Origin: Trypanosoma brucei
Taxonomy: Eukaryota
Direction of reading: 5' to 3'
Assembly: GCA_000002445.1 (NCBI GenBank)
Contig: CH464491.1
Coordinates: forward strand, 2,240,001 to 2,304,000
Length of the DNA stretch: 64,000 nucleotides
A program made the translations under genes and the position numbers. A model generated the notes under the pieces. It was not told the origin of the DNA, did not search any database, and saw only the letters and a list, made by a program, of their open reading frames with translations. Shown in pieces: positions 34,834-60,050 of the stretch (position 1 is the stretch's first letter; every line of letters starts with the position of its first letter).

Positions 34834-35427
34834 GCTCTCTACCGTCCACACTATTTTGTGTGTCATGTGATGTGTCTGTATGTGTGATTGTGATCGTAGT
34901 GAGTGGAGAATAGATTATGATGAAACAGATACGGCATGAGCGCTTCTCTTTTCCGCACCGTTTCCCTCCTATACATTTACTGTTATTTCATTCATTTTCA
35001 CACTTAGTGGGAGTACGCGTTCTCACTTTTTATTTTTTTGTTCACTGTGCTTGGCGTCAACATTGCCTCTGCGTCTTTGAACCTCGGTCTACGTCCTCTT
35101 CTGTCATTTCTCATACATTCTTTGATTTTTTTTTGTTGGTGTGTGTACTCTTACACTTCCTTATTGACTTGTCGGTTCATATATGAACGTACACGCACAT
35201 ATATATATGTATATATATTCATTTACTTAGCAGTGATCTGTCATTGGTGAAGTTCAATAGCTTTCCCATTAGTACGTGGAGGGATCCGGAAGAAGGGAGG
35301 GAACCCGAACGTATTTATTACCATTACATCAACCAACTAACAAGGTAGTGCAGCGTCTGAAGCTTCCATTCTTTATTATTATTGTTATTTGCTCGAAGGT
35401 TGTGATACGGTAAACTTTTTTCCTCAT

Positions 35428-36594: not shown

Positions 36595-37080
36595 CTTCCC
36601 TTTGCATTCCAGCGACGGTAACTGTCGGCATGCATACAAACGCAAACGCAAACGTGCTCACACAAATGAGTCTCCGTATATGTGTACGTTAATGCTTGTG
36701 TTGAAATGGGGAGAGCAAAAGCAAAAGGGAAAAGAAGAGAAGGTGTGGGTTTTCTCAGAGGGAAATTAGGTTAAAATTTTTTTTTAAAAAGGGAGAGGAA
36801 AAGGGGGAGAGGGAGGTGTAATAAAAGGTAATGCGAGTCTAGCAAGTATCATATATTCGAACGTTGGCGTCCGTAAGCTCATTGGTTAACCCACAGGACC
36901 GGGGCGGCGTACCTCATTGTTCCATAATTCTGTTGGGCTGCCTTTCTTCTTTTTCATTTGTATGCGTTTTCGATTTTCTTCTCTGTTTATTCTTTTAAAA
37001 GTTTCGTTAGTTTATTCCTCCATTATTTTTCTAGTTCAAATGGTGCTCTTTGTAACGTTGTTTGTGTCTCAGTCCTTCAG

Positions 37081-37103
37081 ATATATATATATATATATAT
37101 TAT
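37081..37103. repeat. (AT)11 microsatellite
   Basis: Seen directly. Confidence 0.85.
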
Positions 37104-38321
37104 GTACTTGATCCCCTTCCACCACAACATGCTCGTGTATTCGGCGGGAGAAATAAGTTAGAGTAAAAGAGGAGAACCAGAGGAAACGGTCGGCGACAAC
37201 ACTGTTTTTTTTTGTTGCTTGCTTTGAGTAAAAATGATAATAATAATATAATAATAATAAGTAAAAAAAATGAAGGGAGAAGGGAGGGAAACCGTAAATG
37301 CGTTTATACATTTAAGTTTGTCCTTCACTGCAGCAAGCATCCAATGGTCACTGTTCCTGCTCTTTGCTTAAACATTTATTTATTTATTTCTCCATTACTA
37401 TCGTTGTGGGAAGGGAAAGAAAAAGGTGGAAAATGATATTAAAGGTAGACAGTGAGTGAAACTGGGAACTTCTACGACTTTGAGTGAAAACTTAGCGTAA
37501 TGCCCCACTGAACTGATACCGTTTATTATGTCCACCTAGTGGAGAAGAGAATGAAAGGCATTAATTACTGCTGCAACTGGGGTAAGTTTTGCTCTTTTTT
37601 GAATGATGTATGGGATGAATTAGTGGGTTGATGAGCATTGCTTTCGTTAAATTAAAAAAAAAAATGCTGCAATTCCTTTAAGATCCCACCCACCAAATGA
37701 ATTAGTTGTTAGCATGACTTGACGAGTGCGTGCGATCAAAATAACGATACGATATTCCAGCATGCGTATTTGTACAATTGATCAGTGGTTTGCCACCGCC
37801 AGTTACTTTTTTCCCCCTCTGCGCGTGTGGCCGGTGGGGAAAGGCATGAGATTTCTGCGGTGATGCAGTTGGATAATGCGGCGTGCCAAACTTTTTCTAT
37901 CAAATTTATATTTAAGTATTGCGTACATCTTTACCAAAAGTGGCTCAGGTACCCGAGAGGCATACGCGTATTTGTAATCTAAAATGACTTGTTTATCCTT
38001 TTATTTTTTTTTTTTGGTGCTTCACGCATTTTATCAGGGGTGCACTGTAATCACTGGCATTTTACTTTTTTTTTAAAAAAAAAACATAAACAGATGGGAC
38101 AAACATTGCCTTCTTGCTCCCATAAGTTTTAGTTTGTGACTAAGTTGGGCGTGGAAAAAAAAAAACAACTGAGGATTTACGATAGAATCGGATAGAAATA
38201 CAACAGGAGGAGGGAAATAGAGGGAAGGGGATAACATTACATAACAGGTACAGATATCAAAAGTAAATAAGGCATAACAAATAGGCGAGTGTGACGGAAA
38301 CACATTTGAGGTATTGATAAA

Positions 38322-39626
38322 ATGATGATGCGAGTGGTAGGTAAGGGGAAAAAAACAAAAGAGGTGAAAAAGAGCCGTGAGGCGTCTTCGGAGAAAAAAA
38401 TCCCGTCTCCTTTGGAAGTGGAGGGAGCTCAAGACGTGCCAAACGCCAACAATGTCCGTTACATCCTTCACAACCAATGGTCATTGACGTTGCTTGTGGA
38501 TATCTATGAGACGGAACGGCTTACGCAAATAGCTGTTGCCAATGGCGCAGCAATAGGGGACCTTCCTGTTCAGTTAAATCTGTCCGTATGGGCCCTCAAG
38601 AAAATGGGTGTGGGGAAATCCAGTCAGTCCCTTAGTGGATTATCAACGGAGTTGGTTGATGCCGGAAAAAATGTAAAGTGGATGTTGGGCGGGAGACTGC
38701 TGAAAATGGTTATTGATTTATCCGAGGGGCCCGAGTGCAGTGCATCAGCGGAACCGGGAAGATACACTTCACTTGCATCGATGAAACAGAGTTCGAAGTT
38801 GGGTGAGTCAAACTACAGAGTGACCGTAGACCTGTTGTGTGAAGGTGGTAATAAGTGGCCCGTATTTGGCACACCCGAGTCAACATGCAACACATCAGGG
38901 GACTCATCGCCAACAAGTATAGTCCCCCGTGCGTTAAAATTTAGCCTGTCTCCCGTCACCACGAGAGAAGCTAGTGCTTCATTAGACCAATCTGTCCTCA
39001 TGCAGCTGAATGAGTTTACCACGTTGGATACCAGTAGGTTTCCTGTTGTGAAATTATGCCTCAGCATGGAAGGGGAGAAGGGCCGAATTGTACATTTTGC
39101 GGAGCGCATATTTTCAGGGATAGGCGTAAGTGTGGACGTGCGGTGCTTGAGTGATGAGGAATTATCTCCTGAGGCCCGCAGAGAGCCAGGGACTGGAGTG
39201 AACATAACTGCTTTTGAAGAGCACGACAGTGAGGGGAGAGAATACCTTTTTATCGAGTTAGACTCTAGCAAGGATTACGGTGCAGTGGGCGACGACGAAC
39301 GGATAATTAGTAATGCAAATCACGTGCGCGTCGGGTCTCGTTACCTGCTGAACTTCACAGCTACGCGCCCAGCACCGCGACTGCCGGATTTTGCAGAGGT
39401 GTATAGAAGTGTTCGCGACCACCTTCACCAGTTGCCCAATGCATTGAACAACCTCAACATGCCGAGCGTGCGGGCTGCTGTAGTGAAAGATTTGGTCCAA
39501 CATGTGGCTTCGCGGGAGTTGAAAAACATGATTTGGGAGGCTGTTCGTTTGTATATTATTAGGGACTACCTGGAAGCTGATCAACGGAGTATCTCAACAT
39601 CTCCTATAGTGATTCGAACCCTTTGA
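38322..39626 (+). CDS. hypothetical protein, 434 aa
   Basis: The start is ATG at 38322. The ORF is long and co-directional with a Lys-rich N-terminus. I recognise no motif. Confidence 0.5.
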   Translation: MMMRVVGKGKKTKEVKKSREASSEKKIPSPLEVEGAQDVPNANNVRYILHNQWSLTLLVDIYETERLTQIAVANGAAIGDLPVQLNLSVWALKKMGVGKSSQSLSGLSTELVDAGKNVKWMLGGRLLKMVIDLSEGPECSASAEPGRYTSLASMKQSSKLGESNYRVTVDLLCEGGNKWPVFGTPESTCNTSGDSSPTSIVPRALKFSLSPVTTREASASLDQSVLMQLNEFTTLDTSRFPVVKLCLSMEGEKGRIVHFAERIFSGIGVSVDVRCLSDEELSPEARREPGTGVNITAFEEHDSEGREYLFIELDSSKDYGAVGDDERIISNANHVRVGSRYLLNFTATRPAPRLPDFAEVYRSVRDHLHQLPNALNNLNMPSVRAAVVKDLVQHVASRELKNMIWEAVRLYIIRDYLEADQRSISTSPIVIRTL

Positions 39627-40690
39627 GTAACGTTTCTCTTCACCACAAGCACTTATGTTGTCGTTTTTATTTGTGGTTGTACGTGTTTGTTAGAAGAAAT
39701 TATATCTGTGCGAGGGATTTAGTTATTGCTCGCAGCCGAGCGTTTGTACGTTTTGACGTGCGTCGCAGCGGTGCTCAGAGGTGGGGTCCCTCCTACACTT
39801 TCCTCTAAAAAGGAAAATTATCCACTGAAACTTTGACTTGTATATTAGCTGCGAATATCCACGTGGCTATTCTCGGAAGGAGGAGAGTGGGGGAGCAAAT
39901 GCACCGTATCATTTTCCGTCCCATTTTTTTTTTTCAATCTTCTTCACCTTCCCTTTTGTTTGTTGTGATGCTGCTGCAGGGATGTCTGTGTGACACTGAT
40001 GTGTTGTGCTTCTTCAAACAGACTTTAAGAAAATGAGCAAGCAGATAAATTTACATTCATTTATGCACCCGTGGTTACACTTGTACATTTATTTATTTCC
40101 AAAAAATATAAATACATGAATCGCATACAAGTGTGTTTGTATGCACCTGCAGGCTTTGGGAGGAAGAAGGGAGGAGGGGAAAGTTGGCAGCGACTGTTGC
40201 TGCTGTTGGCTCTGCCTTTCTATTTTTTCAAAGTTCCTTCGGTTTGGCGGTGGAACTCCGCCGTTCTCCATTGTTTTTCCCTTTACTTTCCAATTGTTTT
40301 CGAATCATAGTCCTCGTTTCTTTCTTCCCGCTCCTCCCACCTGTGACGTTTCTTTTTGAGAGCCGTGACAAGGCCGAATCTACCGGGAAAACTTCTTCTT
40401 TTCTTTGTTTCTTTCTTTTGCGACTTCAGCACCTGCGACACCCCCAAATATATATATATATATACACAATTGGAGTAAATTAAAACTATTTTTAACACCC
40501 TCAGGAAAAAAGAAGAAACGGGATCAGCAAACGGAGGATCAACTTTACGCTGTGTTTCTGAGATCGGAGGTCAGTTACAAGACCAAAAAAGTAAGAGGGG
40601 AAGGAAAAGTACATTTCGCACGCACACATCATCTTATATATTTATATTCATTTATATATAAAGCACTGAAGGATACTGTTGAGAACGTAT

Positions 40691-41995
40691 ATGCGTGTAG
40701 GAGGATATATGGGTACTTCCGAAGAGGATGGAAATACGGAGCTTTCCGTGAACGGCTCTTTGGATGGTGAAAAATCCATGGGCTTTCGCTGCCTAAAATG
40801 CGTCGGTGAAATTAGTACGTGGACGAAACTGACGAAACACCTGGACACGAGCTGGCACTACTCTGCTGCATGCGTTGAGTGCGGGAAGAAACACAGTTAC
40901 TTTGGTTCGTCACAGCCACACCGACACGAGATGAGCACCAAACATCGCGGATTCCTTGGCATATTCCATGAAAGAAACGACTACAAGATCGACCATCCGA
41001 TGGTACTTACGCGGGATCAGTATCGCTGCCATTGTGGCACATCATTCTTGTGTGTCCTGCATCTTGCCATTCATCTTCGCGACGAGCATCATAACCAATA
41101 CATCCCAAAGACGGTGAAATGTCTCACTTGCCAGGAGGAAGGCATGCTGGATGAGATGGCGGAACACTGGACGACAAAAAAAAGTGAAAACCGGAAAGGG
41201 CGGGGCTTACGATCGAAAAGGGGAACAGGTCCATGCGATGAAGGAGGGGTGCCGAAGGATTGTGAATTCGAAGTTGAAGGTTTCGGAGTGGATCAATTCC
41301 TCGTCCCATTCCCCAAGCGCCCACCTCGCAGCCCAAACGGGAGTCAATATGTCATTTTGTATCAGTGCCCGACTTGTCGACTTTTGTTTGATGAGTGGGC
41401 GGACATCCGGCAACATATTGAGGAATCAAACCACGTCCACGGACTTCCACCGGCACTTCTCCGTCGCCGAATAGAAAGAAGGGTTGGTTTAATAGAGCAG
41501 GGCTCGACCGGATATGGGCAGGTGGACTATCGGACAGCGGGAAATCGCTCGGCGGTTCGATACCTTAAAGAATTACTTGAAGTGTTTGCTGATATCAATA
41601 ACCCTGCCGTGAGGGAGCTTTTGTACAGATATGCCCCCACCAACAAAAATGTCGATCCGGATGATGAAGAAGTATTTGGTTACCAATGCCCCCTCGAGGA
41701 GTGCTCACAAGCCTTTCTAACCTATGGCGAGTTTCGAAGTCACATGAAAAGTACAAAACACCAAACGGAATGTAATATCGACCCGGTAACGGGAAAGCCG
41801 TGGCTCCCTTCGTGGGAGTCAAATCCGTACGCCTTTGAGGTGACCTTCACCATGAGACAATTGGTTGAAGTGTTTGGCTACCGCAAATGCGGGGAGTGCA
41901 ACCGCCCTTACAGGCCAGGAGAGGAACATTATCACTACCAAATGCACCACTTCACCGAAAAAATTGATTTCCGAATCCTGGAATCCACTCTGTAA
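40691..41995 (+). CDS. multi-C2H2 (U1/matrin-like) zinc-finger protein, ~434 aa with about 7 fingers
   Basis: The track ORF starts at TTG 40679, and the first ATG is 40691 (second at 40709). Fingers include FRCLKCVGEISTWTKLTKHLDTSWH, CVECGKKHSYFGSSQPHRHEMSTKH, YRCHCGTSFLCVLHLAIHLRDEHH, VKCLTCQEE...EHW, YQCPTCRLLFDEWADIRQHIEESNHVH, YQCPLEECSQAFLTYGEFRSHMKSTKH and CGECNRPYRPGEEHYHYQMHH. Confidence 0.75.
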   Translation: MRVGGYMGTSEEDGNTELSVNGSLDGEKSMGFRCLKCVGEISTWTKLTKHLDTSWHYSAACVECGKKHSYFGSSQPHRHEMSTKHRGFLGIFHERNDYKIDHPMVLTRDQYRCHCGTSFLCVLHLAIHLRDEHHNQYIPKTVKCLTCQEEGMLDEMAEHWTTKKSENRKGRGLRSKRGTGPCDEGGVPKDCEFEVEGFGVDQFLVPFPKRPPRSPNGSQYVILYQCPTCRLLFDEWADIRQHIEESNHVHGLPPALLRRRIERRVGLIEQGSTGYGQVDYRTAGNRSAVRYLKELLEVFADINNPAVRELLYRYAPTNKNVDPDDEEVFGYQCPLEECSQAFLTYGEFRSHMKSTKHQTECNIDPVTGKPWLPSWESNPYAFEVTFTMRQLVEVFGYRKCGECNRPYRPGEEHYHYQMHHFTEKIDFRILESTL

Positions 41996-42370
41996 AGAAA
42001 CATTTCTTTATGCCACGAAGAGTTTAACATGTACTGGAAAGAGGAGAAGAACGAAGATGAACGAGACGTTGAAATTTACGAGGATTATCATAATCAATAA
42101 TATTTTGCGCCTTTCTTTTTAAGGAAGAAAAGAAAAAGAAGGCAGAGTCCGTCGCATTAAGTATCTGACGTGGATAGATTGTACGAGCACACATAAAGGA
42201 GATGAGACTACGCCGATTTAACTTTTTTTAATCTTCAACGACCCCGGGAAGGTAAGTGAAACAGATAGTTTTTCACCCCTTTTTTCTTTTTTTTTCTTCT
42301 TGTTGCTTTGTTTTGTCTAGAGAGGAATGATATAAAAGGAAGGATAGAGGGGAACAGGAGAGCGTGTATT

Positions 42371-42405
42371 TGTATGTGTGTGTATGTGTGTGTGTGTGTG
42401 TGTGT
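42371..42405. repeat. imperfect (TG)n microsatellite
   Basis: tgtatgtgtgtgtatgtgtgtgtgtgtgtgtgtg seen directly. Confidence 0.85.
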
Positions 42406-42967
42406 TAAATGTATGCGGAGAAGGAATGAGTAGCTGAAATGCGGAGATTATTCCGTGGGAATTTTTATCCGAAACGAAGATAAATGCAAAACACCCCGCC
42501 CTTACCTGCTCCCCTCTTTTGAATTTTTCCTCTCTTTTTTTTTTCCTTCTTTCTACAATATGTTACATTCCTTTTTTTTTTTCTTTTAGGCCCTGCGCTG
42601 CCAAACCCGTATTTCATTTTATGTATGTGTTGTGTGTTTCTCACTGTGACGTGGCCGGGAAGGACTAAAGTAACTGCGAGAAGGAACTAATAATAAAAGA
42701 GCCTAAAAAAGGCTTCGGAAATCGGACCTCGCCAGGCGCTGAGGCCGCGTTTTTCTTTCTTTTTTTTCCTTTTATATTTTTGTTTTTGGTTTTGTTCGGT
42801 CGGACTCGATGGCCAAAACTCAAGCGGACAATACGCCGAGGGCCGCGTCCTCCCTCTTCCATTCCCTTTGGCAGTCGGGCGTTCAAACCGTCACTTGACA
42901 CTGTTTCGACAATTAAACATAGCCTTCAGTTTCTTTTTCTAAGTTTGTAACCTCCTGTTGTAACTTC

Positions 42968-43050
42968 ATTTTCTTTTTTCTTTTTTCTTTTTTCTTTTTG
43001 TTCCCTTCCCTTCCCTTTTCTTCCCTTTTCTCTTCCTTTTCCTTTTCTTC
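42968..43050 (+). repeat. pyrimidine repeat block: (TTTTTTC)n followed by (TTCCC)n
   Basis: ttttcttttttcttttttcttttttctttttg is followed by ttcccttcccttcccttttcttcccttttctcttccttttccttttcttc. Confidence 0.6.
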
Positions 43051-44358
43051 TTACTTTTACACTTTTTTTTGTTTTATCCTTCTCGCCCCTTCCGCCACTT
43101 AACTGCGTTCACACCACTTGCTAAATAATTTTTTTTTCTTTTCTCCTTTCCTTTCCTTTCCTTTTTTTTTTTGAAAGTTGTTTGCTTAAATTTTTCCGTT
43201 CAGTAACTTGACAGGTTGTTTATATTCTTATATTTAACTATATATTCAAATGCAGAATGCACACGAATGTATAAATGCATAAATATATATAAATATATAT
43301 ATGTATTAATAATATTTATTTGGTTTCCACCCCTTTTCTTAAGGGTACAATGGAACTTTCTCTTATTCATTATTATTTATGCAGAAAGACAGCAATACAT
43401 GCCCGTGCATATATTTATATATTTAATTTGGTATGTTGGATTACTTTACCAACACAGAATTTGGATAAATATCCTAACTGCCACATGAAGATGCGGAAAC
43501 CGAGTTGTTTCTCCTCTCATATATTCCAATCTTACTGTTTATTGTCTCTGTTTTAAATTGTTAACGGCTTCAGTCTTCTATCTTTTTCGTGTTTTTTTTT
43601 TCGTCTGTATCCTCTCGTGTGATGTCTCCTCTCGTTCTCTTCATCGATAAAGATTTAAAAAGGAAAAAAAATAATATGATATTATATATTTATATTTATA
43701 ATGTTGTTGTTATGATTGCTATGATTGTCTGTCGTTTGTGGTTCCCTTTCCATGTGTCCGGGTCCCGTTCTTATTGCCACGTGGCGCGATTTGCTTTTTT
43801 GTTTTGTTTTGTTTTCTTCCCTCACTTCTTAATTATATTTTTCTTTCACCCTTTTCTTTGTCAAATCGTTGATGTATTAATGACGTCTTTTTGTCGTTGT
43901 GTTGTCCTTCCTTTTTTTTTTGTTTTTTTTTTCAATGTATCATCCCTTTTTTTGTCTCGCTTTGTTTCCCCTTCTCCCCCCCCGTATTTCACTTCCTCAT
44001 TGCTTGCGTTACCGTTTCGCGTCCTTCCATCGGGGAAGCGTTCGTATGAATTATCAGTGATCAGCAAGAACTGTGAGCAAAAAAAAAAAAAAGAATTCTA
44101 CGGCCCTTCCATCAAGTGAAAAGAAAAGAAAAATGTAATATGTATTTATACTTATATATGCGCCGGGGAGCGAAAGCAAATGTGGGAGTTTTTTTTTTCA
44201 TTTTGTCTTTGCGTTTTTTTTTGTGTGTGTGCTTTGGTTAGGAGGAGGGAGTCTGGGGAAACAATGTTTGTGGTTCATTCAATTACAGAGGAAAGGGTAG
44301 ATTACCGAGCGTAACCTGAAGTAACTGAACCAAAAGTCGTTTGAGTCATCCGATTAGA

Positions 44359-46332: not shown

Positions 46333-47190
46333 AGCACTCATTGGTGCATTGTAGTTATATCATTGCTTACTCGTATTATTATTATTATATCATTACAACG
46401 ACCACTACGACTACGGCTGCTGTTATTTGTTCTCCCTCAGGGCGAAATGGAAGCCAATGGATTTCCCCAGTGGTTTGCTGCATGGAAACGGATTAGGAAG
46501 GCGAAAGAAGCAAGCGTTTGTGTATTTAAAAAAAAAGGTGGCGAAGGCCACGAGGAGGGAAATAAAGACGGCAATCGAGCACTTCACCACAGGGATACTG
46601 TAAACTGTGGCTTTGCAGACGTCGATCTGCATATAACGCGATGCGGAGAGTGTCGTTTCTTTTTTGTTTTTTTTTTAGTTTTTTATTGGTATTGTTATCT
46701 TTTTTCTTTTGTACGTAGGTATGTGAAGATGCCGAGATGGAGAGCCAGAAACGTTCCGTGTTTGTCGTCCTGCAATTCATTTCCTCGTTTTGGTAGTGAT
46801 TTATATTTAGTCGAAGAGCAAATAAATAAAAACAATATATTGTTGCTCCCGTATGTTTAGGTGTTTCCTTCCCCTTCTATCTCCCCCTCCCCCCCCAAAA
46901 AAAAACAGCCAACTACAACAACAGGAAAGCGTGTATCGTTGTGAATTTTCCAATGACTTGAATTGTCATGTACGTGATATATTTTGCTGGTAACTGTTTC
47001 AGCCTCTGCTGTTGTCGTTGTTGTGTTGTCACAATAATCCCCACCGACTTTAAAAAAAAAAGCACAAACAAACTTACCAATTAATTGCTTTTACATTTTT
47101 GTCTTTAACAGGACACATTGGAGTCTCACTATACAAAACACTGCAGTGTGAGCCGGGGAAAGTAAAAGATATAAGCGGGCCGTGATCGGC

Positions 47191-49869
47191 ATGTCTGATT
47201 CGCACCACAGCGGGTATGATGAGAACAGTGGGAGAGGAAACGCCCAGAAACGCCCTAGAAGTGAATCAACTCATGGAAGTTCAAACAGTTGGCAAATTGT
47301 ATCGAGCAGTCGTTGCATCGCTTGCGGACGTTTGCGGTCCTTGTGTGAGTGCCGCAGCCTTCGAGTGGACCCGGAACTGAGGCGGAAGAACCTTGACACC
47401 TTATTGCTTAACACTCCTTATGTTCGCTGCAAACAACTGAAAGCATTAGATGAGGCTGGCCGTGAAGAGGAAAGACACCGCCGGTGTATCGCTGAGGAAT
47501 GGTACTCGAAGATGCGTATCATCAAAAGGGCTGCGCATACTGACAAGTATCTTCTTCGTGTGACCCTCGATGAGGTGAGGGGACGCGAGAACCTTTCAGC
47601 GTTGGAGCGGAAGGAATGGGTGGAGGGTATGGCTCTTAGTGACAAGTATATGGTTCTGCTTGCTCTAGTTCAGCGTGAGCGGGAGGAGCGGCTGAAGTTC
47701 TACGCTTCAGCAGAACGTGCGACAAGGATGTTAGGAACATGGCATAACACAGTATTCCACCTACTCGGTTTGCAGAGCCGTGAGGTGGCATTCCGGAGAA
47801 CTCTTGTTAACAACGAAGCGGCAGCGCGGGCGTCACTATTGAGCATTGAGTTAGAAGCCTTGAAGGTTATGGAAAACAATGAGAAGAGCAGGCTCGAATT
47901 CTTTGAGTTATTCTGGGCTAGCCGCGAGTCGGTTGCAGATGCGTGGATGCAAGGTGTAGAGGCGCTGGAGTGTGCCATGGCGGAGACCGTTCAAAATCTC
48001 GAAAAATGTTTTCAAGAGCGCACTCGCTGTTTCGAAATCGTGTTGAAGCGAAGAGATGAGCTGCTACTGGAGGAAGAGAATGCCAGACAACGTTTGCACA
48101 GTCTTTTTGAGGAGGAAAACGACTTTTTGGAAGAAAACATGCGATTCTTCCAACAGCGACGCGCTGCTGTGATGCAACAGGAAGCGTCAGCAAGGGGTGT
48201 AATATGCCAAGAGGCCACGGATGCTTACAGTGCTCTCTTCCTCGAATGTAGGCGTGACAGAGAAAAGGCTTGCGAGGCAGAGTCCTTTAAGCGACGACGG
48301 CGTGAGGAAGAATTTCATGCTGCCGTTGCTTCTCTGCAAGATATAATGAAAGAGGAGGAGGCAGCCCTCGCACTCCTGAAAACTCAGGAACACCACGAAA
48401 GAGAACTCCGCTACCAATGGATGTTGGAGAGGGAAAAGGCGATCATTAGCGCAGAAAATACACTTCTTCAACATGTACAACTGCTCTTCTCCGAGGAAGA
48501 GAAGGCGCGCGGCGCAATCGTGCATCTTATGCAGCAGCAGGAGGCTGAAACTGCTTCATGGCTTCGGCACAAGGAACGGAAGCTGCGCGAGATCATTGAG
48601 ACTGCATTAGAGGAGAAAAGTCAGATGCTGCTACTCGAACACGAGGAGCGCTTTTCCCTAGTCTCTCAGAAGGCGGAACATGAAGACGCTGTGCGGCGGT
48701 GGGTTGATCACAAGGAAAGCGCAAGGCAGAGCCTAGCTACGGCCGAAACCACTCACCGCAACCGTTGGGTGGATATGGAGCGCAACGCACGGGAGGAGCT
48801 CTCCTGGCGCTTTGGTGAGGGGCTGGAGACCTGTTACTCGCAAGTTCAGCAGCGAATGGAGGCACTGACGAAGCTCCAGCAGCGAGCTTTCCATGCAAAG
48901 GAGGGTATCGTGAAGCAGGAAGAGGAGGCGCTGCGCCTTCTGTTAGGAACATTGCGGGATGATGAGGAACGGTCCCTTAGGGAAGAGATTCACCGCAGGG
49001 TAGTTGATATTCTTAACACCGAGACAGAGCACCGCAGCCATTTAACTCAGCAGGAGGTTGGAAACAGGGAAAGTATTACAACGATGTTCTTGATGCAGGA
49101 GCGGTTCTTTAAGAAGGAGGCCCAGGAACTGCTGAAGGCGCAATTATATGAAATTGTCGCAGCTGAGGAGAGCCACCGCCGCGTGCTGTTGCAGGATGCC
49201 GATGACTCGGTAGAGCGCCTATATCACAGCTATAAAAAGTTATTAGAAGAAGCCCGGCGAAGGGAGGAGGAGCGTGTACGTGAGGAACGTCGCCAGCGTG
49301 AAGTTGCCCTCTTGGAGGATCCGCGCTTGTACCGCGAAGAGGAGGATTGCGACCTTTGTGTCGATGGCGCCTCACCTCCTACCGGACTCGATGATGGCTG
49401 CTACAATGATATGAAGATGGGGCCACTCGGGGAAACATGGATGCTCCAGCGGCAACACGTTGTTGAGGATTTGGGTGGAGAGAGTGCGGACGTCGTGCTG
49501 CTCACTCATGAGACGACTGCGTTTCTCTTCAGCATTGTTAATGCCATCACTGAGAGGGAGGCGATCCTAGCGGCCGAGAGAACCAAAGCCGAATCGACAA
49601 TGAAGAACATACAAAAGAAAATTGAACGACAGAAGTCAGTTTTTGCCAACGTCAAAGAACAGTTGGAGGAATCACAGGAAAAGTTGAAGCGCGATGCTGA
49701 GAACCACAGCAAGCGTTTAGCGACACAGCGTGAAGCCCAACAGAAGTTGGAGGCACAGCTGGCTCGGGAGCGGACGCGCTTAAAGGAGAAGACTGAAGAA
49801 CTGCAACGAACGAAAAACAGTGTCTCGGAGATGCGAGACTCTATTCACAGCCAGTACAAGAAAAGGTGA
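47191..49869 (+). CDS. large Glu/Arg-rich coiled-coil protein, hypothetical, 892 aa
   Basis: The track ORF starts at GTG 47182, and the first ATG is 47191 (MSDSHHSGY). An N-terminal Cys cluster is present (CIACGRLRSLCEC). The remainder is almost entirely heptad-like E/R/L-rich sequence. Confidence 0.55.
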   Translation: MSDSHHSGYDENSGRGNAQKRPRSESTHGSSNSWQIVSSSRCIACGRLRSLCECRSLRVDPELRRKNLDTLLLNTPYVRCKQLKALDEAGREEERHRRCIAEEWYSKMRIIKRAAHTDKYLLRVTLDEVRGRENLSALERKEWVEGMALSDKYMVLLALVQREREERLKFYASAERATRMLGTWHNTVFHLLGLQSREVAFRRTLVNNEAAARASLLSIELEALKVMENNEKSRLEFFELFWASRESVADAWMQGVEALECAMAETVQNLEKCFQERTRCFEIVLKRRDELLLEEENARQRLHSLFEEENDFLEENMRFFQQRRAAVMQQEASARGVICQEATDAYSALFLECRRDREKACEAESFKRRRREEEFHAAVASLQDIMKEEEAALALLKTQEHHERELRYQWMLEREKAIISAENTLLQHVQLLFSEEEKARGAIVHLMQQQEAETASWLRHKERKLREIIETALEEKSQMLLLEHEERFSLVSQKAEHEDAVRRWVDHKESARQSLATAETTHRNRWVDMERNAREELSWRFGEGLETCYSQVQQRMEALTKLQQRAFHAKEGIVKQEEEALRLLLGTLRDDEERSLREEIHRRVVDILNTETEHRSHLTQQEVGNRESITTMFLMQERFFKKEAQELLKAQLYEIVAAEESHRRVLLQDADDSVERLYHSYKKLLEEARRREEERVREERRQREVALLEDPRLYREEEDCDLCVDGASPPTGLDDGCYNDMKMGPLGETWMLQRQHVVEDLGGESADVVLLTHETTAFLFSIVNAITEREAILAAERTKAESTMKNIQKKIERQKSVFANVKEQLEESQEKLKRDAENHSKRLATQREAQQKLEAQLARERTRLKEKTEELQRTKNSVSEMRDSIHSQYKKR

Positions 49870-50576: not shown

Positions 50577-52484
50577 ATGGAGACCAAAGCAATAATGCTA
50601 TTAGTGGTGTCGGCCATCGGTGTCGTGATGCTCACGTGGTTGTTTGTGAGCATTTGCACCCGTAAGTCTAAAGACGATGATATGCACAACGAACCATTGT
50701 TGTCAAAGCATGCAAACTCAAAGCTTATGGAAGTGGATGGAAGGGTCTTGGTCCTTTATGGCTCACAAACTGGCACTGCTGAAATGTTTGCGAGGAACCT
50801 TACACGAGAAGGTTCACGACGTGGCTTTCCCTTGAAAGTACTTGATATTGAGAAGTATCAGGCTTCCAATCTTGTCAAGGAGAAGCGTGTAATTATCGTA
50901 TGTGCCACCTATGGTGATGGTGAGCCCACAGACCCTATGGTTGAGTTCCACGATTGGTTAATGAGTGATTCTCGCGTGATGGGAGAGGAATTGAGTGGGG
51001 TGAGGTACACGGTGTTCGGCCTTGGCGACAGGCAATACGTCAATTTCTGCCGTGAAGGCATCACAGTGGACCGCCGCATGTCTGAGTTAGGCGCTCAGCG
51101 TTTCTATCCCCTTGGTCGCGGCGATTACAGTGATGACATTGAAGAAGATTTCGACAAATGGCGTTCCGGACTTTGGCCAGCACTGAGCACTGAGCTTGCA
51201 CTTGATGTAAAATCGGGCGAAGAGGGGCCGGTAGCTCCGGAATGCTGCATGAAAGCATTGGAATCTTCGGATGAAGCCCCGTTGCCGTTTCCGAAAGCGG
51301 ACCCGGGACTGGAACCAACACAACGATTGCCTTCTTGGGCACCAGTGAAGGTGAACAAGGAGCTGCTGAGCAATGCTACCGGAAGAAGTACAAGGTTGAT
51401 TGAGTTTGATACATCAGAAACTGTTATCTCCTACCAGGCTGGTGACCACCTCGGTGTTCTTCCTAGTAACCCCAGCGAAATGGTGAACACTTATCTGCGG
51501 GTGTTGGGCGTGAGCGAGCAAGAATCAAGTCAGGTCATCTCGTTAGAAAATAAAAATACTGGCGAGTGTGTTTTTCCTTGTCGCGCGTCGATTCGCACCG
51601 CACTCACGTGGTACATCGATCTTGCCGGGCCCCCCAAGAAGTCTACTTTGCGTGCTTTCGCCCACTATTGCACTGATCCCGTTGAAAAGGACACCTTGTT
51701 AAAACTGCTGAGTACTGAACCCGAGTCGGTGGAGGCGTATGGCAAGCTTGTTTTGGAGTTAAGGACTGTCCTTGGCTTTTTGCAGCGATTCAAGTCGATG
51801 TCTCCCCCGCTGAGTTTCTTCTTGGAGATGATGCCGCGGATTGCCCCACGGTATTTTTCCATTTCGTCTGATTCTCTGACCCACCCGACGAGTGTGGCCA
51901 TTACTGTTGCTGTGGTCGAGGGTGGCCTCTGCACAAATTTGCTTCAGCAGGCAGCCGTGGGTCAAAACATTCCCGTATTTGTGCGAAAATCGAACTTCCA
52001 CCTTCCGCTTCAAGCCGAGGATCGACCAATCATCATGATTGGCCCGGGCACGGGTGTAGCGCCTTTTATTGGATTTCTCCACCGCCGTAGCGCGTGGCTG
52101 GAAAAGGGTAACAAAGTTGGTGATGCACTTTTGTTTTTTGGTTGCAGGAGGCGTGAGGAGGATCATATATATGCCGACTTTATGGAGAAGTGTCTATCGA
52201 ATGGGGCACTCTCCGTGCGGGATGTTGCTTACAGCAGAGAACAAGCGGATAAAGTTTATGTGCAGCACCGCTTAGCGGCACGCGGGAAGGAAGTATGGGA
52301 AATAATCAGCAGAGGAGGAAATGTTTACGTATGCGGGGATGCAAAGAATATGGCGAGGGATGTCGAGAGGCAGCTACTGGACATCGCGCAGAAATATGGT
52401 GCAATGAAGGAGGATGAGGCGACGGCATTGCTTGAGAAACTCGCAACTGATGAACGGTATTTGAAGGATGTCTGGACGGCGTGA
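50577..52484 (+). CDS. CPR: NADPH-cytochrome P450 reductase (diflavin reductase) with an N-terminal membrane anchor, 635 aa
   Basis: The start is ATG at 50577. A TM anchor is present (AIMLLVVSAIGVVMLTWLFVSI). Flavodoxin motifs are 'VLVLYGSQTGTAE' and 'VFGLGDRQY'. FAD binding is 'RYFSISSD', NADPH binding is 'IIMIGPGTGVAPFIGFL', and the C-terminus is 'YVCGDAKNMARDV...DVWTA'. Confidence 0.9.
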   Translation: METKAIMLLVVSAIGVVMLTWLFVSICTRKSKDDDMHNEPLLSKHANSKLMEVDGRVLVLYGSQTGTAEMFARNLTREGSRRGFPLKVLDIEKYQASNLVKEKRVIIVCATYGDGEPTDPMVEFHDWLMSDSRVMGEELSGVRYTVFGLGDRQYVNFCREGITVDRRMSELGAQRFYPLGRGDYSDDIEEDFDKWRSGLWPALSTELALDVKSGEEGPVAPECCMKALESSDEAPLPFPKADPGLEPTQRLPSWAPVKVNKELLSNATGRSTRLIEFDTSETVISYQAGDHLGVLPSNPSEMVNTYLRVLGVSEQESSQVISLENKNTGECVFPCRASIRTALTWYIDLAGPPKKSTLRAFAHYCTDPVEKDTLLKLLSTEPESVEAYGKLVLELRTVLGFLQRFKSMSPPLSFFLEMMPRIAPRYFSISSDSLTHPTSVAITVAVVEGGLCTNLLQQAAVGQNIPVFVRKSNFHLPLQAEDRPIIMIGPGTGVAPFIGFLHRRSAWLEKGNKVGDALLFFGCRRREEDHIYADFMEKCLSNGALSVRDVAYSREQADKVYVQHRLAARGKEVWEIISRGGNVYVCGDAKNMARDVERQLLDIAQKYGAMKEDEATALLEKLATDERYLKDVWTA

Positions 52485-53766: not shown

Positions 53767-55032
53767 ATGGTGTTCATCCTCTTGGCATGCAGTGATATAT
53801 GCGGGAAGAAGGTAAATGTAACGTTGCCCTTCGAGAGGCCTCCCGAGTCACTCGATGAGCTTTACCGCGTCGTGGAGCAGTTGTTTCGTGGGGAGGAAAC
53901 GGATATAAAACGTACGGTCGACGGTGGCGAATACCGGACGCGCCCCTCTGAACCCTTTACCTGCCGTCGCATCCAGCGCTTCGATGATGAAACGAGAACT
54001 TGGGTGGAAGTAACAAGTGAGAAGCAGTTGGCCCCGTATGATCAATTGTATGTCTTTCGAAAGAACGCGACGCGAGCTGATATTTCCACTGAGCGGGAGC
54101 TACCGGAACCTCGCAGCAGCATTCACTTCCCCCAGACGGATGGCAGACTCAATGGGTTATACACTTCCAATGCCAACCGACGTGCCAGCACGGCAACGGT
54201 GAGTCATTTGACAAGCTCGCCGCACACGCCCACGACACAACAACAAACGGCCTCTTCGTCCCGCCGCGGTGGGGAGAGCCGCAGGTATAGTCTCTCCCGA
54301 GAGAGGGAAAAGAGTCGCGTTACAAGCAGCAGCTGCGTTCCTGAATGTATTGGTGGAAATGGTTCTCCGCAGGGGTTTGATATTAATGCGCGTGCTGATA
54401 AAGTGGTGAGGAAGCACGTAGAGGCTGTTTACTCCATTGGAGACGCATGCAAGAAAGGTTATCTAACCGCACGAGAGTTTCAGGGCATTTTTCGGTCCTG
54501 CCATATAGACTTCCCCTTCGATGCTATTGATGATATATATCGGGTGTTCGCTGATGACCGCGACGGGGATCGGGCCATGACAATTCGGAACTTCTACGAG
54601 TTCGCGCATAGTTTCAACCAAACTGTTAATATTGCTTATGCGCGCTTCAGCAACGAAAGGAGACAGCAAGTTGTGGAGCAGGAACAGCGTGGGGCGGAGT
54701 CTGCGCTTGAAGAACTGCAAAAGCAGAAACGAATACTTGAAGAGCGGTTGGAGGAAATGCAGAAGCAAATAGTTAAGGAGCAGGAGAGGCGGGCGCGTTT
54801 GCAGAATGAAGCAGATGAATTACGTATGTCCAGGGATCCGTCTTTGCGGGAAGAAGAACAACGATTACTCGAGAAGGAAGTGAGTGTGTTCCAATACAGG
54901 AAGAAACTTCTGCAAGAAGAAGTGGATTATGAGAAACTGGTAGCAGAGCGTCGTCGCCGGTCGGCGGCTGTAATGGGTCACACTAAAATGCTTCCCCAAA
55001 CATTCAAATATGGGTACGACATTCATGACTGA
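53767..55032 (+). CDS. hypothetical protein with a ubiquitin-like/DCX-like N-terminal segment, a Ser/Thr-rich linker, an EF-hand-like region and a C-terminal coiled coil, 421 aa
   Basis: The start is ATG at 53767. 'KKVNVTLPFERPPESLDELYRVVEQLF...RRIQRFDDETRTWVEVTSEKQLAPYDQLYVFRK' has the beta-grasp-like pattern seen in doublecortin/ubiquitin-like domains. 'DAIDDIYRVFADDRDGDRAMTIRNFYEF' is EF-hand-like. The C-terminus is a coiled coil (LEELQKQKRILEERLEEMQKQIVKEQERRARL). Confidence 0.5.
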   Translation: MVFILLACSDICGKKVNVTLPFERPPESLDELYRVVEQLFRGEETDIKRTVDGGEYRTRPSEPFTCRRIQRFDDETRTWVEVTSEKQLAPYDQLYVFRKNATRADISTERELPEPRSSIHFPQTDGRLNGLYTSNANRRASTATVSHLTSSPHTPTTQQQTASSSRRGGESRRYSLSREREKSRVTSSSCVPECIGGNGSPQGFDINARADKVVRKHVEAVYSIGDACKKGYLTAREFQGIFRSCHIDFPFDAIDDIYRVFADDRDGDRAMTIRNFYEFAHSFNQTVNIAYARFSNERRQQVVEQEQRGAESALEELQKQKRILEERLEEMQKQIVKEQERRARLQNEADELRMSRDPSLREEEQRLLEKEVSVFQYRKKLLQEEVDYEKLVAERRRRSAAVMGHTKMLPQTFKYGYDIHD

Positions 55033-55523: not shown

Positions 55524-55550
55524 TATATATATATATATATATATATATAT
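55524..55550. repeat. (TA)13 microsatellite
   Basis: Seen directly. Confidence 0.9.
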
Positions 55551-56186
55551 CCATTTTTCTGACCCATAAATGCATTTATATGCTGTTCTTTCCGCCTCCT
55601 AAAATTTACCCTCGTGTAATTGTGCAACAACAGAATTCATGTGATGGTCTTAAACATCTTTCCCTTGCCTGGAACTCTGTTTTCGTCTTTTTTTTTCCTT
55701 GCGAGTATTGTCATATCGATATATGCCCACATCGGTGTGCACACTTCACAAAACGAGTGAGGGAGTGGTACTAAACTAACAACAATACTAACAAAAGGAA
55801 TAAATAGGAGTGCTAACAAGGGGGACGAGCCGCTTCTTGTGTGTGTGTGTGTTGTGGTTGTTTCGGAAGCTTCCGAAAGCAACAGTGGCATGCAGGTGTG
55901 TGGGCTCACTTGTGTTCGGCGTCCACCTCATTTTTTAAAAAAAACGAGGCAATTTTAGCGGTAAGGGGCTTCTGAAAATAAATAAACAATAATAGTAAAA
56001 GTACGTAGTTGTGCTTGAAAGTACATACCATAAGGTGTCCATATCCTTACTTTGGATAGTATTCGCTTCCATGATTGGTTCGCTGCGCACAGTGGCACGC
56101 ACAAACACACGCCTCGCAGAGTGTAATCCGGGCAGTGCACTAAAAATACACTCATTTGTTTATTCATTTGTTTCGGCCGTTGGCAC

Positions 56187-57647
56187 ATGATTCGCTTGAG
56201 CGAAGTTGTGCGCCGCGTGTTGCTTCACGCTTCAGGTGGACGTTCGTGTAGATCATTCAGAAATGGATGTGGTGTCGAGAACGACCACGAAAACGGCAAC
56301 GCGGACCTTTTATCGTTGCGCTCCACCCTGCCCAATCAAAATGACTTTTTCTTTTCACGTTCTTCAGCCTCAAACTGTTGTCGCCTTTGCGGGGAGGTGT
56401 CTCAAACAATTCTTTCACACACTGGTTCACAGGCACATGTTACGGTAGAGGCACTCATGTGGCTGTTGTTTCAGAGAGCGAGACAATATAAGGATGGAGC
56501 TGTTGGTGTTTCTCCAACTGCAGCACGAAATTTTTTTGTTGAGGAGGCCAGAAGGTGGGAGGGAATACTGCAGTGTTCCTTAGTTAACCAGCGCTCGTCA
56601 TCACTTCATGCCATTACTGAGGATGGGTCACCTTGTCTTGAAGAATCTGCCGTGTATCATGGGGATCCCGCAACACTTTGGAAAGAGGTTGCTGAAAAAA
56701 GTGCGTTACGGCTGCAGAGTCAAATCCGCGTCTTGGGTAAACTTGGTGTGCTGAACGTTGTAGATTCCCTCTTTACAACGGCAAGCTCTGGTGGCTTGCA
56801 GCGTGACGCTGCTTTTCAGCGGATGGAGTGCATTGGTGATCACAATTGGGGGCATTCTGTTTGTCGTCGTATCGTGCTTCTTTTTCCAGAGGTTAACTGG
56901 CGGGCAAATTCAAATGTTTTGGTGATGGATGCATTACGGACGGTTCTTGAGTGTAATCAGCACCTGGTTCATGTTTTCACCTTGCTGCAGCTTAGCGACA
57001 AGCTAGGAGGCAGAGATGTGAAGGAAAAATCAGTGAAATTTAAAGCTGATATTGTTGAGGCGATTATTGGTGAATTGCACGTGGCATTATGGTCTTTGCA
57101 GTCTAGCACTAACGACGGTTTCACATCTATACCCTCAATTCACGGGGCTCCTTATACCATTCCTTTAGTTTCTATGGTGGAAGAGTGTTTAGATGGCATC
57201 GTGGGTCTTGTTATTCTTGCATTGATGGCGCGGTATGCCGCGTCCCTCGTGCCTGCCGTTGTGGATCTTGTCCGACGTGAGAAGTATCTGCTGGATGTGT
57301 CGTGCCCCTTTTATACGTTACGTAAGCGGCGGGAACGGTTCCGACAGGACGAACACGCCATGCGATGGTTATTGCCCCCGCACCCACCACTGCAGCAGCA
57401 GAGGCAGGAGTTGTTGAAGGGACCGCGGAGTTCTGTTGACACGTGCGTGAACGAGTGGAACCTTTCGAATACCAATCCTGTTGGTGATGTACTAGCCAAT
57501 GCCTCAGGTGGAGAAAATATGGCTCTAACAAATGCAATGGAGAAGCGGACCCCGACTGGGGTGGTTTGTTGGACGAAAAAGATTTTTTTCTCTGAAATGG
57601 CAGATTTCTATGGTTTGCTTCGCCTTCCGGGTGGGCAGCCGCCCTGA
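56187..57647 (+). CDS. RNase III-domain protein with a mitochondrial-presequence-like N-terminus, 486 aa
   Basis: The start is ATG at 56187. The N-terminus 'MIRLSEVVRRVLLHASGGRSCRSF' is Arg-rich and amphipathic. The RNase III signature is 'FQRMECIGDHNWGHSV' (ExxExxGD), with downstream 'FKADIVEAIIGELHVAL' (cf. 'KxxADxxEAxxGAxxLD'). Confidence 0.7.
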   Translation: MIRLSEVVRRVLLHASGGRSCRSFRNGCGVENDHENGNADLLSLRSTLPNQNDFFFSRSSASNCCRLCGEVSQTILSHTGSQAHVTVEALMWLLFQRARQYKDGAVGVSPTAARNFFVEEARRWEGILQCSLVNQRSSSLHAITEDGSPCLEESAVYHGDPATLWKEVAEKSALRLQSQIRVLGKLGVLNVVDSLFTTASSGGLQRDAAFQRMECIGDHNWGHSVCRRIVLLFPEVNWRANSNVLVMDALRTVLECNQHLVHVFTLLQLSDKLGGRDVKEKSVKFKADIVEAIIGELHVALWSLQSSTNDGFTSIPSIHGAPYTIPLVSMVEECLDGIVGLVILALMARYAASLVPAVVDLVRREKYLLDVSCPFYTLRKRRERFRQDEHAMRWLLPPHPPLQQQRQELLKGPRSSVDTCVNEWNLSNTNPVGDVLANASGGENMALTNAMEKRTPTGVVCWTKKIFFSEMADFYGLLRLPGGQPP

Positions 57648-58013
57648 AGTGTACATTGTGTTGTTGTTTTTTCTTCTTTTCCGAGCGAGGGAACAAAATA
57701 TTATGGGGGAAGATCTGTCTAAAGGTAGAGAGGTCGGCGGGGCTGGTGTGCTAACTGAAAATTTTTTCTTTATTTTTCGCTTTCTCTTGTTGGCTTTCTT
57801 CCTCATTTATACGTATTTGCGAGGCCGTCAGGGATTAAAGTACGGGCGTCCTTTCACATCCCCAAAACAAAGGAGAGAGTGTACAAGGAGAATTCATCTG
57901 TGGGACCAAAGCTGAGCGCTCCCAACGACTGCGAAGTTGAACCGCAACAACGTGGAGGAAAGGAGTGAATCCAACCTGTGGTGAGGGAAAGCAGCACAAG
58001 AAGAAACAACACA

Positions 58014-60050
58014 ATGTCACAACTGCCGTTAATTCATACGCAACAAAAAAGTACGACACGCTACTGTCCATCGGGGGATGAAAACTCGGTTGCAGTGTTC
58101 CGCCCCAAGCTTCCTTTCTTGTCTGAGGTAAACTCATGCGCTTTAGTGGTTGCATCCTCTCGTTCGCAAGGCCGCAGTGTGTCACGATCGACTTCGGAGG
58201 GTGGTCAGTTAACTTCCGCGTCACGCCTTTCTTGGTTGTTGGAGCGACGCGCTACAGCACGACCTGCCACGGGGCGGTCATTGCAATGGGTAGAACTCAT
58301 GGAGAGACAGGGGCGCCAGCTCATAAAGGCCATAGCTTACTCAACTTCACCTGTTCGTTGTTATTTTATGGCCGGAGACGACGAGGGTTGCTTTCTGCCT
58401 TCATTGTGCGAACCGTGGCCTCCTACACTAACCACAGAAGATGAGCTCAATCAAATGATCAAAAGAGCTTCCGTCAAGGCTAAGGAGCACATTTTTGCTG
58501 ATCGTTGGTTTGGCGAGGGAAAGCAATGTGCTAAAGAACCCCTAGCAAATACAGACGCCTTCAAGAGCGTGGAGGAGAGTCAGATGGATATAATGAGGGA
58601 ATTCGTGGATTTGAGGAGTAGTGTGTGTAGTGAGTTCTTGAAACAAGTAGAGATACGGCGCTCTCTAATAGATCTGGTAAAAAAAGAGAAAGAAGCGAGG
58701 GTTGCCATGCTCGGTGAATTTATCTCATGCTGTCCTCCACATCCGTGTCGCTGCCTTTTATTGGACATGGAGGTTTTAGAGGAATCCGCCATCCCACTTG
58801 AGCCTGCAGTCGGTATTACCTGTCTGTACACTTCCATTGTGATTGGGGGACACGAAACCCTGGAGGAGACGTTGCTACAACAGCGGGAGGTGGAACTTCA
58901 AGTGCTTTATGATCAACACCGTTTTTTTATTGATGCTCAGAAGGTTCTCACCGACGTCCGGAATCGGGAGCACGAACGCTTTGAATCCATGATGGCCTAT
59001 TTTGCATTCGCCCTCAGGTTACTTCGGGAACGTGAGGCGCTCTCAGTGGAAACAACAACTCCACCCGGATGTGACGAAGGCCCACGTGAAACGAAAACAA
59101 GGGGCAAACGTTTTCATATGAACTATTACAAATACCTGCATGTACTTGGCACCATAGAGGTGGAGGAAGGGGCACGCGGGCGGATTTGTGCGGGAGAGTT
59201 CACAGAAATTCGTCATATCTTGTATCATTTTGAGAGAAAATGCCGCAGTAGTATTGTTTCGACTGAGGAACTGGAACGGCAGCGCTTGCTCCTCAATACC
59301 GAGATGCAGCAGCGGTTATCTATTCAGAATGCCGAAGAATTGGCACTCAATGAGACAGTATGTCCTCGTAGCTTCCAGGAACTAATCGAGACACTCATGA
59401 AGAAAGAACGTGAGGAGTGGCAGCGAGCCCTCGAAGAGGCGCGCATCACACGGTCCATTGAGTTGGTTTGTGAATACGAGGTGTATCGGCGGCGTGAAAT
59501 TGGTTTGTTTGAACAACAGCTGCGGGCGTGTGCTCGATTCTTATTTCTGAATACCACCGATGGTGCTGGTAGGATTACTGTAGAGCGATGGATGCGCGAA
59601 CATGAGGTTCTAGTAGTGCAGCGGGAGGAGGCCGCCTTGAGGAAACGTATCGTGGAGTCGGAGGATCAGGCGCTCACCACATGGATCACAGCGCATAGGT
59701 GGATGGTGGATCATGACCGCCACCTTCAGAGTATAGCAAAAGAGAAGGAGGATAGGCGCGCAGTGGACCGTGTCATTGCGGAGGAGTGTGCTGCACGTGG
59801 CGTCGTGGAGTCTCTTTGGGCAGGTGAGCATTACGTGCTCTTCGGGGAAGTGATTCGCGTTCCTGAGGGCATTTATAAGTTTCCAGAGGGTAGACAAAGT
59901 GGTGAGGGGAGAGAGAGCAGCTGCGGTGACGGGGAAAGCACCTCTCGTGGGTTAGACATTCGTCAAGTTGTTATCGCCAACCTCGGGGAATTTTTTAACG
60001 ATCGAGCACTCTTGGGCTTTTTCGATAGGCGCCCCGTTTCACCTATTTGA
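58014..60050 (+). CDS. hypothetical protein, 678 aa
   Basis: The track ORF starts at GTG 57978, and the first ATG is 58014 (MSQLPLIH). The ORF is long, co-directional and helical/charged in the C-terminal half. I recognise no motif. Confidence 0.5.
   Translation: MSQLPLIHTQQKSTTRYCPSGDENSVAVFRPKLPFLSEVNSCALVVASSRSQGRSVSRSTSEGGQLTSASRLSWLLERRATARPATGRSLQWVELMERQGRQLIKAIAYSTSPVRCYFMAGDDEGCFLPSLCEPWPPTLTTEDELNQMIKRASVKAKEHIFADRWFGEGKQCAKEPLANTDAFKSVEESQMDIMREFVDLRSSVCSEFLKQVEIRRSLIDLVKKEKEARVAMLGEFISCCPPHPCRCLLLDMEVLEESAIPLEPAVGITCLYTSIVIGGHETLEETLLQQREVELQVLYDQHRFFIDAQKVLTDVRNREHERFESMMAYFAFALRLLREREALSVETTTPPGCDEGPRETKTRGKRFHMNYYKYLHVLGTIEVEEGARGRICAGEFTEIRHILYHFERKCRSSIVSTEELERQRLLLNTEMQQRLSIQNAEELALNETVCPRSFQELIETLMKKEREEWQRALEEARITRSIELVCEYEVYRRREIGLFEQQLRACARFLFLNTTDGAGRITVERWMREHEVLVVQREEAALRKRIVESEDQALTTWITAHRWMVDHDRHLQSIAKEKEDRRAVDRVIAEECAARGVVESLWAGEHYVLFGEVIRVPEGIYKFPEGRQSGEGRESSCGDGESTSRGLDIRQVVIANLGEFFNDRALLGFFDRRPVSPI

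Follow-up and report, generated by a model that had tools for sequence, protein, structure and literature searches.

The stretch of Trypanosoma brucei DNA analysed here, 64,000 nucleotides of contig CH464491.1 (hereafter the window), carries at 56187..57647 on the plus strand the complete coding sequence of mRPN1, also called KRPN1 (Tb927.11.8400), which is an already published and named gene and not a new one. The sequence, the predicted structure and the published work make it highly probable that the product is a mitochondrial, homodimeric endonuclease of double-stranded RNA (dsRNA) with a zinc finger, an RNase III core and a RAM-like helix; its most plausible role would be a non-essential cleavage of RNA duplexes.

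The open reading frame (ORF) listing places the ATG at 56187 and the end of the stop codon at 57647, giving a product of 486 amino acids. A protein search returned full-length 100% identity to T. brucei brucei TREU927 XP_828914.1/EAN79802.1 (UniProt Q384H9), and the identical accessions include T. equiperdum SCU71187.1, annotated ‘Mitochondrial RNA processing endonuclease 1 (mRPN1)’. Carnes et al. (2015) give mRPN1 as Tb927.11.8400 and list genomic primers for it (PMC4274635), 12 of 12 of which were located in the window with zero mismatches and at the offsets of that paper. The ORF primers 5orf-8171 and 3orf-8173 lie at 56187-56205, beginning at the ATG, and at 57608-57628; FOR-8217 and FOR-8260 lie at -38 and +362 relative to the ATG, and REV-8261 and REV-8218 end at +437 and +1526. 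A 13th oligonucleotide, the mutagenic FOR-8174, matches apart from its two designed changes. Because the protein identity is complete and the primers fall at their published offsets, the ORF is this known gene, and by sequence identity it belongs to the mRPN1/KRPN1 orthologue group; in a 2026 review it appears under the name KRPN1, as ‘Endonuclease, RNase III’ (PMC12936278). The first-pass annotation of this DNA had proposed a mitochondrial RNase III-fold protein from one of three kinetoplastid classes (editing endonucleases, a gRNA-processing endonuclease or catalytically dead structural paralogues) and named mRPN1 among several candidates, and mRPN1 is exactly what it is.

An RNase III catalytic domain had been read from two short motifs, and profile, sequence and structure searches show that this was no chance resemblance. 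The core spans residues 206-304 (56802..57098, plus strand) as delimited by Pfam, hhalign, conservation and model confidence, and contains the signature QRMECIGD at residues 211-218 (56817-56840, plus strand) and the second acidic motif KFKADIVEAIIGEL at residues 284-297 (57036-57077, plus strand), within which the KADIVEAIIGE quoted by the first-pass annotation is indeed present. Pfam PF00636 matches residues 211-297 with an E of 3e-4 and a score of 22 bits, below the gathering score of 27 bits. KREN1, a validated enzyme, likewise stays under this cut-off with 24.1 bits, which shows that the profile has little sensitivity for this kinetoplastid branch. A phmmer search of PDB sequences with the single mRPN1 sequence retrieved KREN1/MP90 (9dei_C) at E 1e-26, KREN2/MP61 at 1e-5 and Giardia Dicer at 0.15, with no mitoribosome chain among the matches, and the orthologue profile reached KREN1/MP90 at 4.5e-38 and MP61/KREN2 at 1.6e-7. 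An AlphaFold2 (AF2) model built from 47 homologues (mean predicted local distance difference test score, pLDDT, 74; predicted template-modelling score 0.69) is confident across residues 50-370, with pLDDT >90 in the RNase III core. Foldseek placed this model first against 9dei_C (E 4.9e-8) and then against other RNase III-like RECC1 chains, with further matches to Entamoeba RNase III, K. polysporus Dcr1, Campylobacter and Thermotoga RNase III and the RNase IIIb domain of human Dicer; model and search agree on an all-helical RNase III fold. The chain holds only one RNase III signature and one D/E motif. It is thus not a Dicer-like protein, the alternative that had been raised: Dicers carry two RNase III domains in tandem, and the Giardia Dicer match is marginal.

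The active site is intact. The E. coli RNase III sequence was verified against 7r97_A, and the mRPN1 orthologue profile was aligned to it by hhalign (E 5.6e-4), which pairs E214, D218, D288 and E291 of mRPN1 with E. coli E41, D45, D114 and E117, and Q211 and W238 with E38 and E65. All four metal-binding carboxylates (E214, D218, D288 and E291) are thus retained in T. brucei mRPN1, including the second catalytic-site acid that the first-pass annotation had singled out as decisive for activity. Its assignment of QRMECIGD to the ExxExxGD signature holds for the motif as such and fails at the first acid, the E38 equivalent, which is Q211 and invariantly so in nine orthologues. Only the two auxiliary acids, the equivalents of E38 and E65, are replaced in the alignment, by Q211 and W238. 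Neither E38 nor E65 is known to be essential for catalysis. Across the nine Trypanosoma orthologues Q211, E214, D218, W238 and E291 are invariant and D288 is kept in eight. Since all four metal-binding carboxylates are present, the alignment places mRPN1 in the active class of RNase III, in keeping with published work in which mutating a catalytic residue abolished activity.

A catalytically dead structural paralogue of the KREPB4-10 kind would be suggested by Q211 at the first signature acid, by W238 at the E65 position and by a substitution in T. vivax, D288V, described below. What defines the inactive KREPB4-10 paralogues, however, is the loss of essential catalytic residues, and T. brucei mRPN1 has lost none: the four metal ligands are all there, as they are in 8/9 orthologues, an E38A/E65A variant of E. 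coli RNase III exists as a solved protein (7r97_A), and in vitro activity of mRPN1 is on record in the account given by PMC4274635. We consider a dead paralogue extremely unlikely.

The T. vivax orthologue (P0008) reads KAVVVEAIAGE, with valine at residue 298, the equivalent of D288 and of E. coli D114. The codon is GTT (L001:1755-1757, on contig CAEX01000363.1 of the Y486 draft assembly), one base away from GAT, and the change is either an assembly error or the mark of a naturally inactivated enzyme.

N-terminal to the core lies a U1-like C2H2 zinc finger, C65-x2-C68-x9-H78-x5-H84 (CRLCGEVSQTILSHTGSQAH; 56379..56438, plus strand), recognised by conservation, alignment to KREN1 and the AF2 model. 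All four ligands (C65, C68, H78 and H84) are kept in every full-length mRPN1 orthologue and in many KREN-type relatives; the CRLC half of the finger aligns with the CRLC finger of KREN1 (domain 1 of the phmmer match in the PDB), and over the finger the model has pLDDT 84-92 with predicted strand and helix elements. Pfam run on the N-terminal 201 residues assigned no family, zinc finger included, even at E<=10. Both the finger and the long helix described below are features that mRPN1 has in common with the kinetoplastid family of KREN1-3 and KREPB4-10. The T. congolense IL3000 entry (P0004; TCIL3000_11_8920, 411 residues) starts at the equivalent of M91, lacking presequence and finger alike; the gene model has probably been cut short, and the difference is unlikely to be biological.

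The first 25 residues (56187..56261, plus strand) form a basic, acid-poor segment that resembles a presequence in charge composition and in the bias of its orthologues; this N-terminus reads MIRLSEVVRRVLLHASGGRSCRSF, as the first-pass annotation had quoted it. Six R/K face one D/E in the first 30 residues, against a balanced protein as a whole (10.7% basic and 10.3% acidic), and all orthologues have 4-8 basic and 0-1 acidic residues in the same interval despite ~27% identity there. A shuffle test of amphipathicity by hydrophobic moment gave no significant result (592/2000), and the case for a presequence is therefore built on composition together with the published localisation, a mitochondrial assignment for which PMC4274635 cites Madina 2011. 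Residues 1-4 and 14-36 have pLDDT <50 in the AF2 model. The composition is consistent with a matrix-targeting signal.

Following the core, residues 325-368 (57159..57290, plus strand) are modelled as one long helix (pLDDT ~95) that aligns with KREN1 360-421. RAM was described in 2022 for the editosome RNase III proteins (KREN/KREPB), where it displaced ‘dsRBM’ and later ‘PUF’ annotations (PMC9508840), and the mRPN1 helix may be its equivalent. Beyond it, residues 401-486 (57387..57644, plus strand) make up a poorly conserved C-terminal tail that is predicted to be disordered (pLDDT ~40-57) and shows 15% identity among Trypanosoma orthologues, compared with a mean of 70% in the core. The C-terminal 115 residues matched no Pfam family, dsrm included, at E<=10, and hhalign of the tail profile against the E. 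coli dsRNA-binding domain (dsRBD) found no similarity (probability 0.1%). Because Pfam finds no dsrm, hhalign returns 0.1%, disorder is predicted and identity is 15%, the ‘identifiable dsRBM’ reported for mRPN1 finds no support here, which suggests a RAM-like helix followed by a disordered tail instead. The 6-8 substitutions within the T. brucei group are distributed accordingly, with five in the tail, others at residues 40, 369 and 393 and none at residues 41-368.

An exhaustive HMMER search over 1.84 billion representative proteins found 80 relatives, of which seven lie at E<=1e-30: the cluster of mRPN1 itself, five further clusters of Trypanosoma orthologues and the metagenome protein P0014. 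The mRPN1-specific motif QRLECIGD is borne by P0014 and by a second metagenome protein, P0015. In a neighbour-joining tree of the RNase III core, mRPN1 falls in the KREN1-like half, characterised by the FPxxxW insertion type, as a clade of its own that is separate from KREN1 and from the KREN2/KREN3 half; among the distant homologues, mostly metagenome or SRA-assembly proteins, only KREN1 (P0017) and a Strigomonas MP67/KREN3 (P0066) could be named, and the KREN2 labels of the tree were assigned because the motifs resemble those in the MP61 alignment. Two mRPN1/KREN1-like proteins, P0014 (471 residues) and P0016 (502 residues), come from same-strand contigs of metagenome sample 3300059473, from an uncultured kinetoplastid-like organism, and their synteny was judged by gene order and Pfam content only. 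The first listed gene upstream of P0014 encodes a 637-residue flavodoxin/FAD/NAD reductase whose counterpart in the window has 635 residues (50577-52484). Because P0014 bears QRLECIGD and its upstream reductase mirrors that of the window, it is probably a syntenic mRPN1 orthologue in an uncultured kinetoplastid. P0016 has ERVECIGD and clusters nearer the KREN1-like proteins. In T. vivax, the gene that follows the orthologue showed no detectable similarity to the downstream ORF of the window and lends no synteny support. Outside Trypanosoma, mRPN1 was not detected in Perkinsela (PMC4669381), and no obvious Leishmaniinae orthologue stood among the strong HMMER matches.

This conservation bears on whether the gene might be a relic without function that drifts, can be dispensed with and is expressed only as noise. 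The very low ribosome footprints, the nearly phenotype-free null (PMC4274635), non-detection in Perkinsela (PMC4669381) and a possible D288V in T. vivax would all fit a relic, but drift would hardly leave an intact ORF of 485-497 residues across the genus, a core 70% identical, invariant active-site residues and polymorphisms excluded from residues 41-368, nor a syntenic orthologue with QRLECIGD in an uncultured kinetoplastid. The strength of conservation in the core speaks for mRPN1 having some function, and a relic seems to us very unlikely.

The biochemistry of mRPN1 is known to us through the accounts in PMC4274635 and PMC3867540. According to these, the protein is a homodimer, as suits a superfamily in which RNase III domains dimerise to form the processing centre, and it needs Mg2+ to cut dsRNA and leaves 2-nt 3' overhangs; a catalytic-residue mutant is dead; and the accounts report no association with editosome proteins. 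We can ask whether mRPN1 is instead a KREN1-3-type editing endonuclease, a RECC subunit that nicks mRNA at editing sites as a heterodimer with a dead partner; KREN1-3 are stable members of the 20S editosome in heterodimers with KREPB6/7/8. The architecture of zinc finger, RNase III domain and RAM is common to both and KREN1 is the strongest similarity, yet mRPN1 is identical to no RECC chain in 9dei or 9z0h, forms a clade separate from KREN1 and KREN2/3, and at 486 residues against the 818 of KREN1 has no C-terminal extension; homodimers and the lack of editosome association, as PMC4274635 relates them, point the same way. There is next to no likelihood that mRPN1 is such a subunit.

The function originally proposed for mRPN1, in 2011, is that of a dedicated endonuclease that releases guide RNAs (gRNAs) from polycistronic minicircle transcripts. 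In the accounts of PMC4274635 and PMC3867540, procyclic RNA interference (RNAi) lowered gRNAs, raised their precursors and lowered edited mRNAs, and mRPN1 was found together with MRB1 components, TbRGG2 among them; the intact catalytic site would also suit this model. A complete knockout in the bloodstream form, however, affected neither editing nor the maturation of gRNAs, other procyclic RNAi lines, made independently, grew normally, and translation of mRPN1 is very low (all PMC4274635). Later work ascribes the 3' ends of gRNAs and mRNAs to the MPsome (RET1/DSS1), which trims 3'-5' up to limits set by antisense transcripts (PMC6789859). Whether mRPN1 deserves the label ‘gRNA-processing endonuclease’ is a matter of published dispute (PMC4274635): the precursor model rests on one procyclic RNAi study and is superseded, as far as 3' ends are concerned, by the exonucleolytic MPsome model. 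We regard dedicated gRNA release as unlikely.

For the mitochondrial duplex-cleaving endonuclease that we favour, the following course can be proposed. The mRPN1 gene is nuclear and lies on chromosome 11 within a long same-strand polycistronic unit, and its product would be imported into the mitochondrion, as the literature holds and as the N-terminal composition would allow. In its plan, a zinc finger followed by the RNase III core and a RAM-like helix, it matches the editosome endonucleases, with KREN1 as the closest paralogue. In the homodimer two active sites would face one RNA duplex and, the dimer being symmetric, both strands would therefore be cut, unlike in the KREN/KREPB heterodimers, whose one active site nicks only the mRNA strand. 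The U1-like zinc finger rather than a dsRBD would contact the substrate, and the role left to the enzyme would be a non-essential cleavage of mitochondrial sense/antisense RNA duplexes.

Several points weigh against this reading. Homodimerisation, activity and localisation reach us second-hand, through the citing papers PMC4274635 and PMC3867540. Ribosome profiling ranks the translation of mRPN1 among the lowest 10-18% of mRNAs, and its loss from bloodstream forms has almost no phenotype (PMC4274635). To these are added the Pfam score below gathering and the valine in the T. vivax active site. Finally, we infer both the substrate contact, for which the zinc finger in place of a dsRBD is most likely, and the role, for which cleavage of sense/antisense duplexes is most plausible.

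A wider reading that joins these strands is possible, though we think it less likely than not. Here mRPN1 would be a minimal, dsRBD-less homodimer of the zinc finger-RNase III-RAM type, the symmetrical sister of the asymmetric KREN1/KREPB8 pair, and would serve in non-essential clearance or trimming of the sense/antisense duplexes that arise from bidirectional kinetoplast transcription. Its lineage spread would be patchy, covering Trypanosoma and some uncultured kinetoplastids, whereas Perkinsela has yielded no such gene, the T. vivax enzyme may be inactivated and no obvious Leishmaniinae orthologue stands among the strong matches.

The gene has been known since 2011, its knockout was published in 2015 and a 2026 review includes it among the editing factors; what is added here is incremental: the lack of support for a dsRBM, a helix resembling RAM, a probable syntenic orthologue from a metagenome and D288V in T. 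vivax. Their interest lies in the fact that, since gRNA 3' ends were attributed to MPsome trimming, mRPN1 has stood as an active, conserved mitochondrial dsRNA endonuclease without an established substrate. Leads for a substrate hunt are offered by the missing dsRBD, the editosome-nuclease architecture, the constrained core beside a free tail and the syntenic orthologue outside the genus.

The surroundings of the gene are typical of a trypanosomatid. All 21 ORFs of at least 250 residues in the window lie on the plus strand, which is the pattern of a polycistronic unit, and the G+C (GC) content is ~46%; scanning the entire window for Rfam families and for tRNAs gave no hit. RAD51 at 5437-6558 (plus strand; Pfam Rad51, E 6.5e-131) adjoins, in the same transcription unit, a zinc-hook SMC ATPase of RAD50 type at 8698-12747 (plus strand), and the two fit the chromosome 11 region around Tb927.11.8190-8210. 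A 926-residue RNB-domain 3'-5' exoribonuclease occupies 28992-31772 (plus strand), listed with a TTG start, the true start probably being a downstream ATG; it was considered as DSS1, the mitochondrial gRNA-trimming enzyme, and rejected, its best PDB relatives being DIS3L2 (E 6e-88) and RRP44/DIS3. The plus-strand ORFs 53767-55032, 57978-60050, 47182-49869 and 35389-41995 matched no Pfam family at E<=0.001, and the immediate neighbours of mRPN1 encode 421 residues (coiled-coil-like, with an E/R/Q-rich C-terminus) and 690 residues. The intergenic interval 42001-44000 has an unusually low GC content of 0.36 and a strong negative AT skew of -0.29 compared with the rest of the window. Upstream of mRPN1 there is an (AT)n/(TA)n run at about 55525-55550, and a 39-codon upstream ORF (MIGSLRTVARTNTRLAECNPGSALKIHSFVYSFVSAVGT*) at 56071-56190 (plus strand) whose TGA overlaps the mRPN1 start (ATGA); this ORF could contribute to the very low translation of mRPN1, provided that the spliced-leader acceptor site is located upstream of it. 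A minus-strand ORF that overlaps the gene (57211..57696, 161 residues, TTG start) was treated as a chance ORF.

Compared with known systems, the ORF is the same gene as the mRPN1 of 2011 and of Carnes et al. (2015), with no sequence difference. The Entamoeba histolytica RNase III (5f3o/5f3p/5f3q), a non-canonical Dicer, and K. polysporus Dcr1 are eukaryotic enzymes with a single RNase III domain and the next-best folds after the RECC chains; they are only ~16-18% identical to mRPN1 and have no U1-like zinc finger. Both act in RNAi and not in mitochondrial RNA processing. Bacterial class 1 RNase III, represented by E. coli Rnc (7r97), likewise has just one RNase III domain, whose four metal ligands are those of mRPN1, and as far as the accounts of mRPN1 go the two enzymes agree in homodimeric, Mg2+-requiring dsRNA cleavage that leaves 2-nt 3' overhangs. 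Unlike E. coli Rnc, to which its sequence is only weakly similar, mRPN1 has no detectable C-terminal dsRBD (alpha-beta-beta-beta-alpha) and carries an N-terminal extension with a zinc finger, and lacking that dsRBD it is set apart from class 1 RNase III with dsRBD and from proteins like mitoribosomal mL44 in general. The closest paralogue is KREN1 (MP90/KREPB1), the U-deletion editing endonuclease of RECC1 (9dei chain C), with 37% identity over residues 193-361. The two proteins have in common the CRLC zinc finger, ExIGD...KADxVEAxxGE, the FPxxxW insertion type and the long helix after the core. They differ in that KREN1 has 818 residues with a large C-terminal extension, whereas mRPN1 has 486 and no such extension, and in that the first signature position is E in KREN1 (ERLEYIGD) and Q211 in mRPN1. 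Within RECC, KREN1 is paired with a catalytically dead partner in a heterodimer that nicks one strand; mRPN1, by the published accounts, is a homodimer outside RECC that cuts both.

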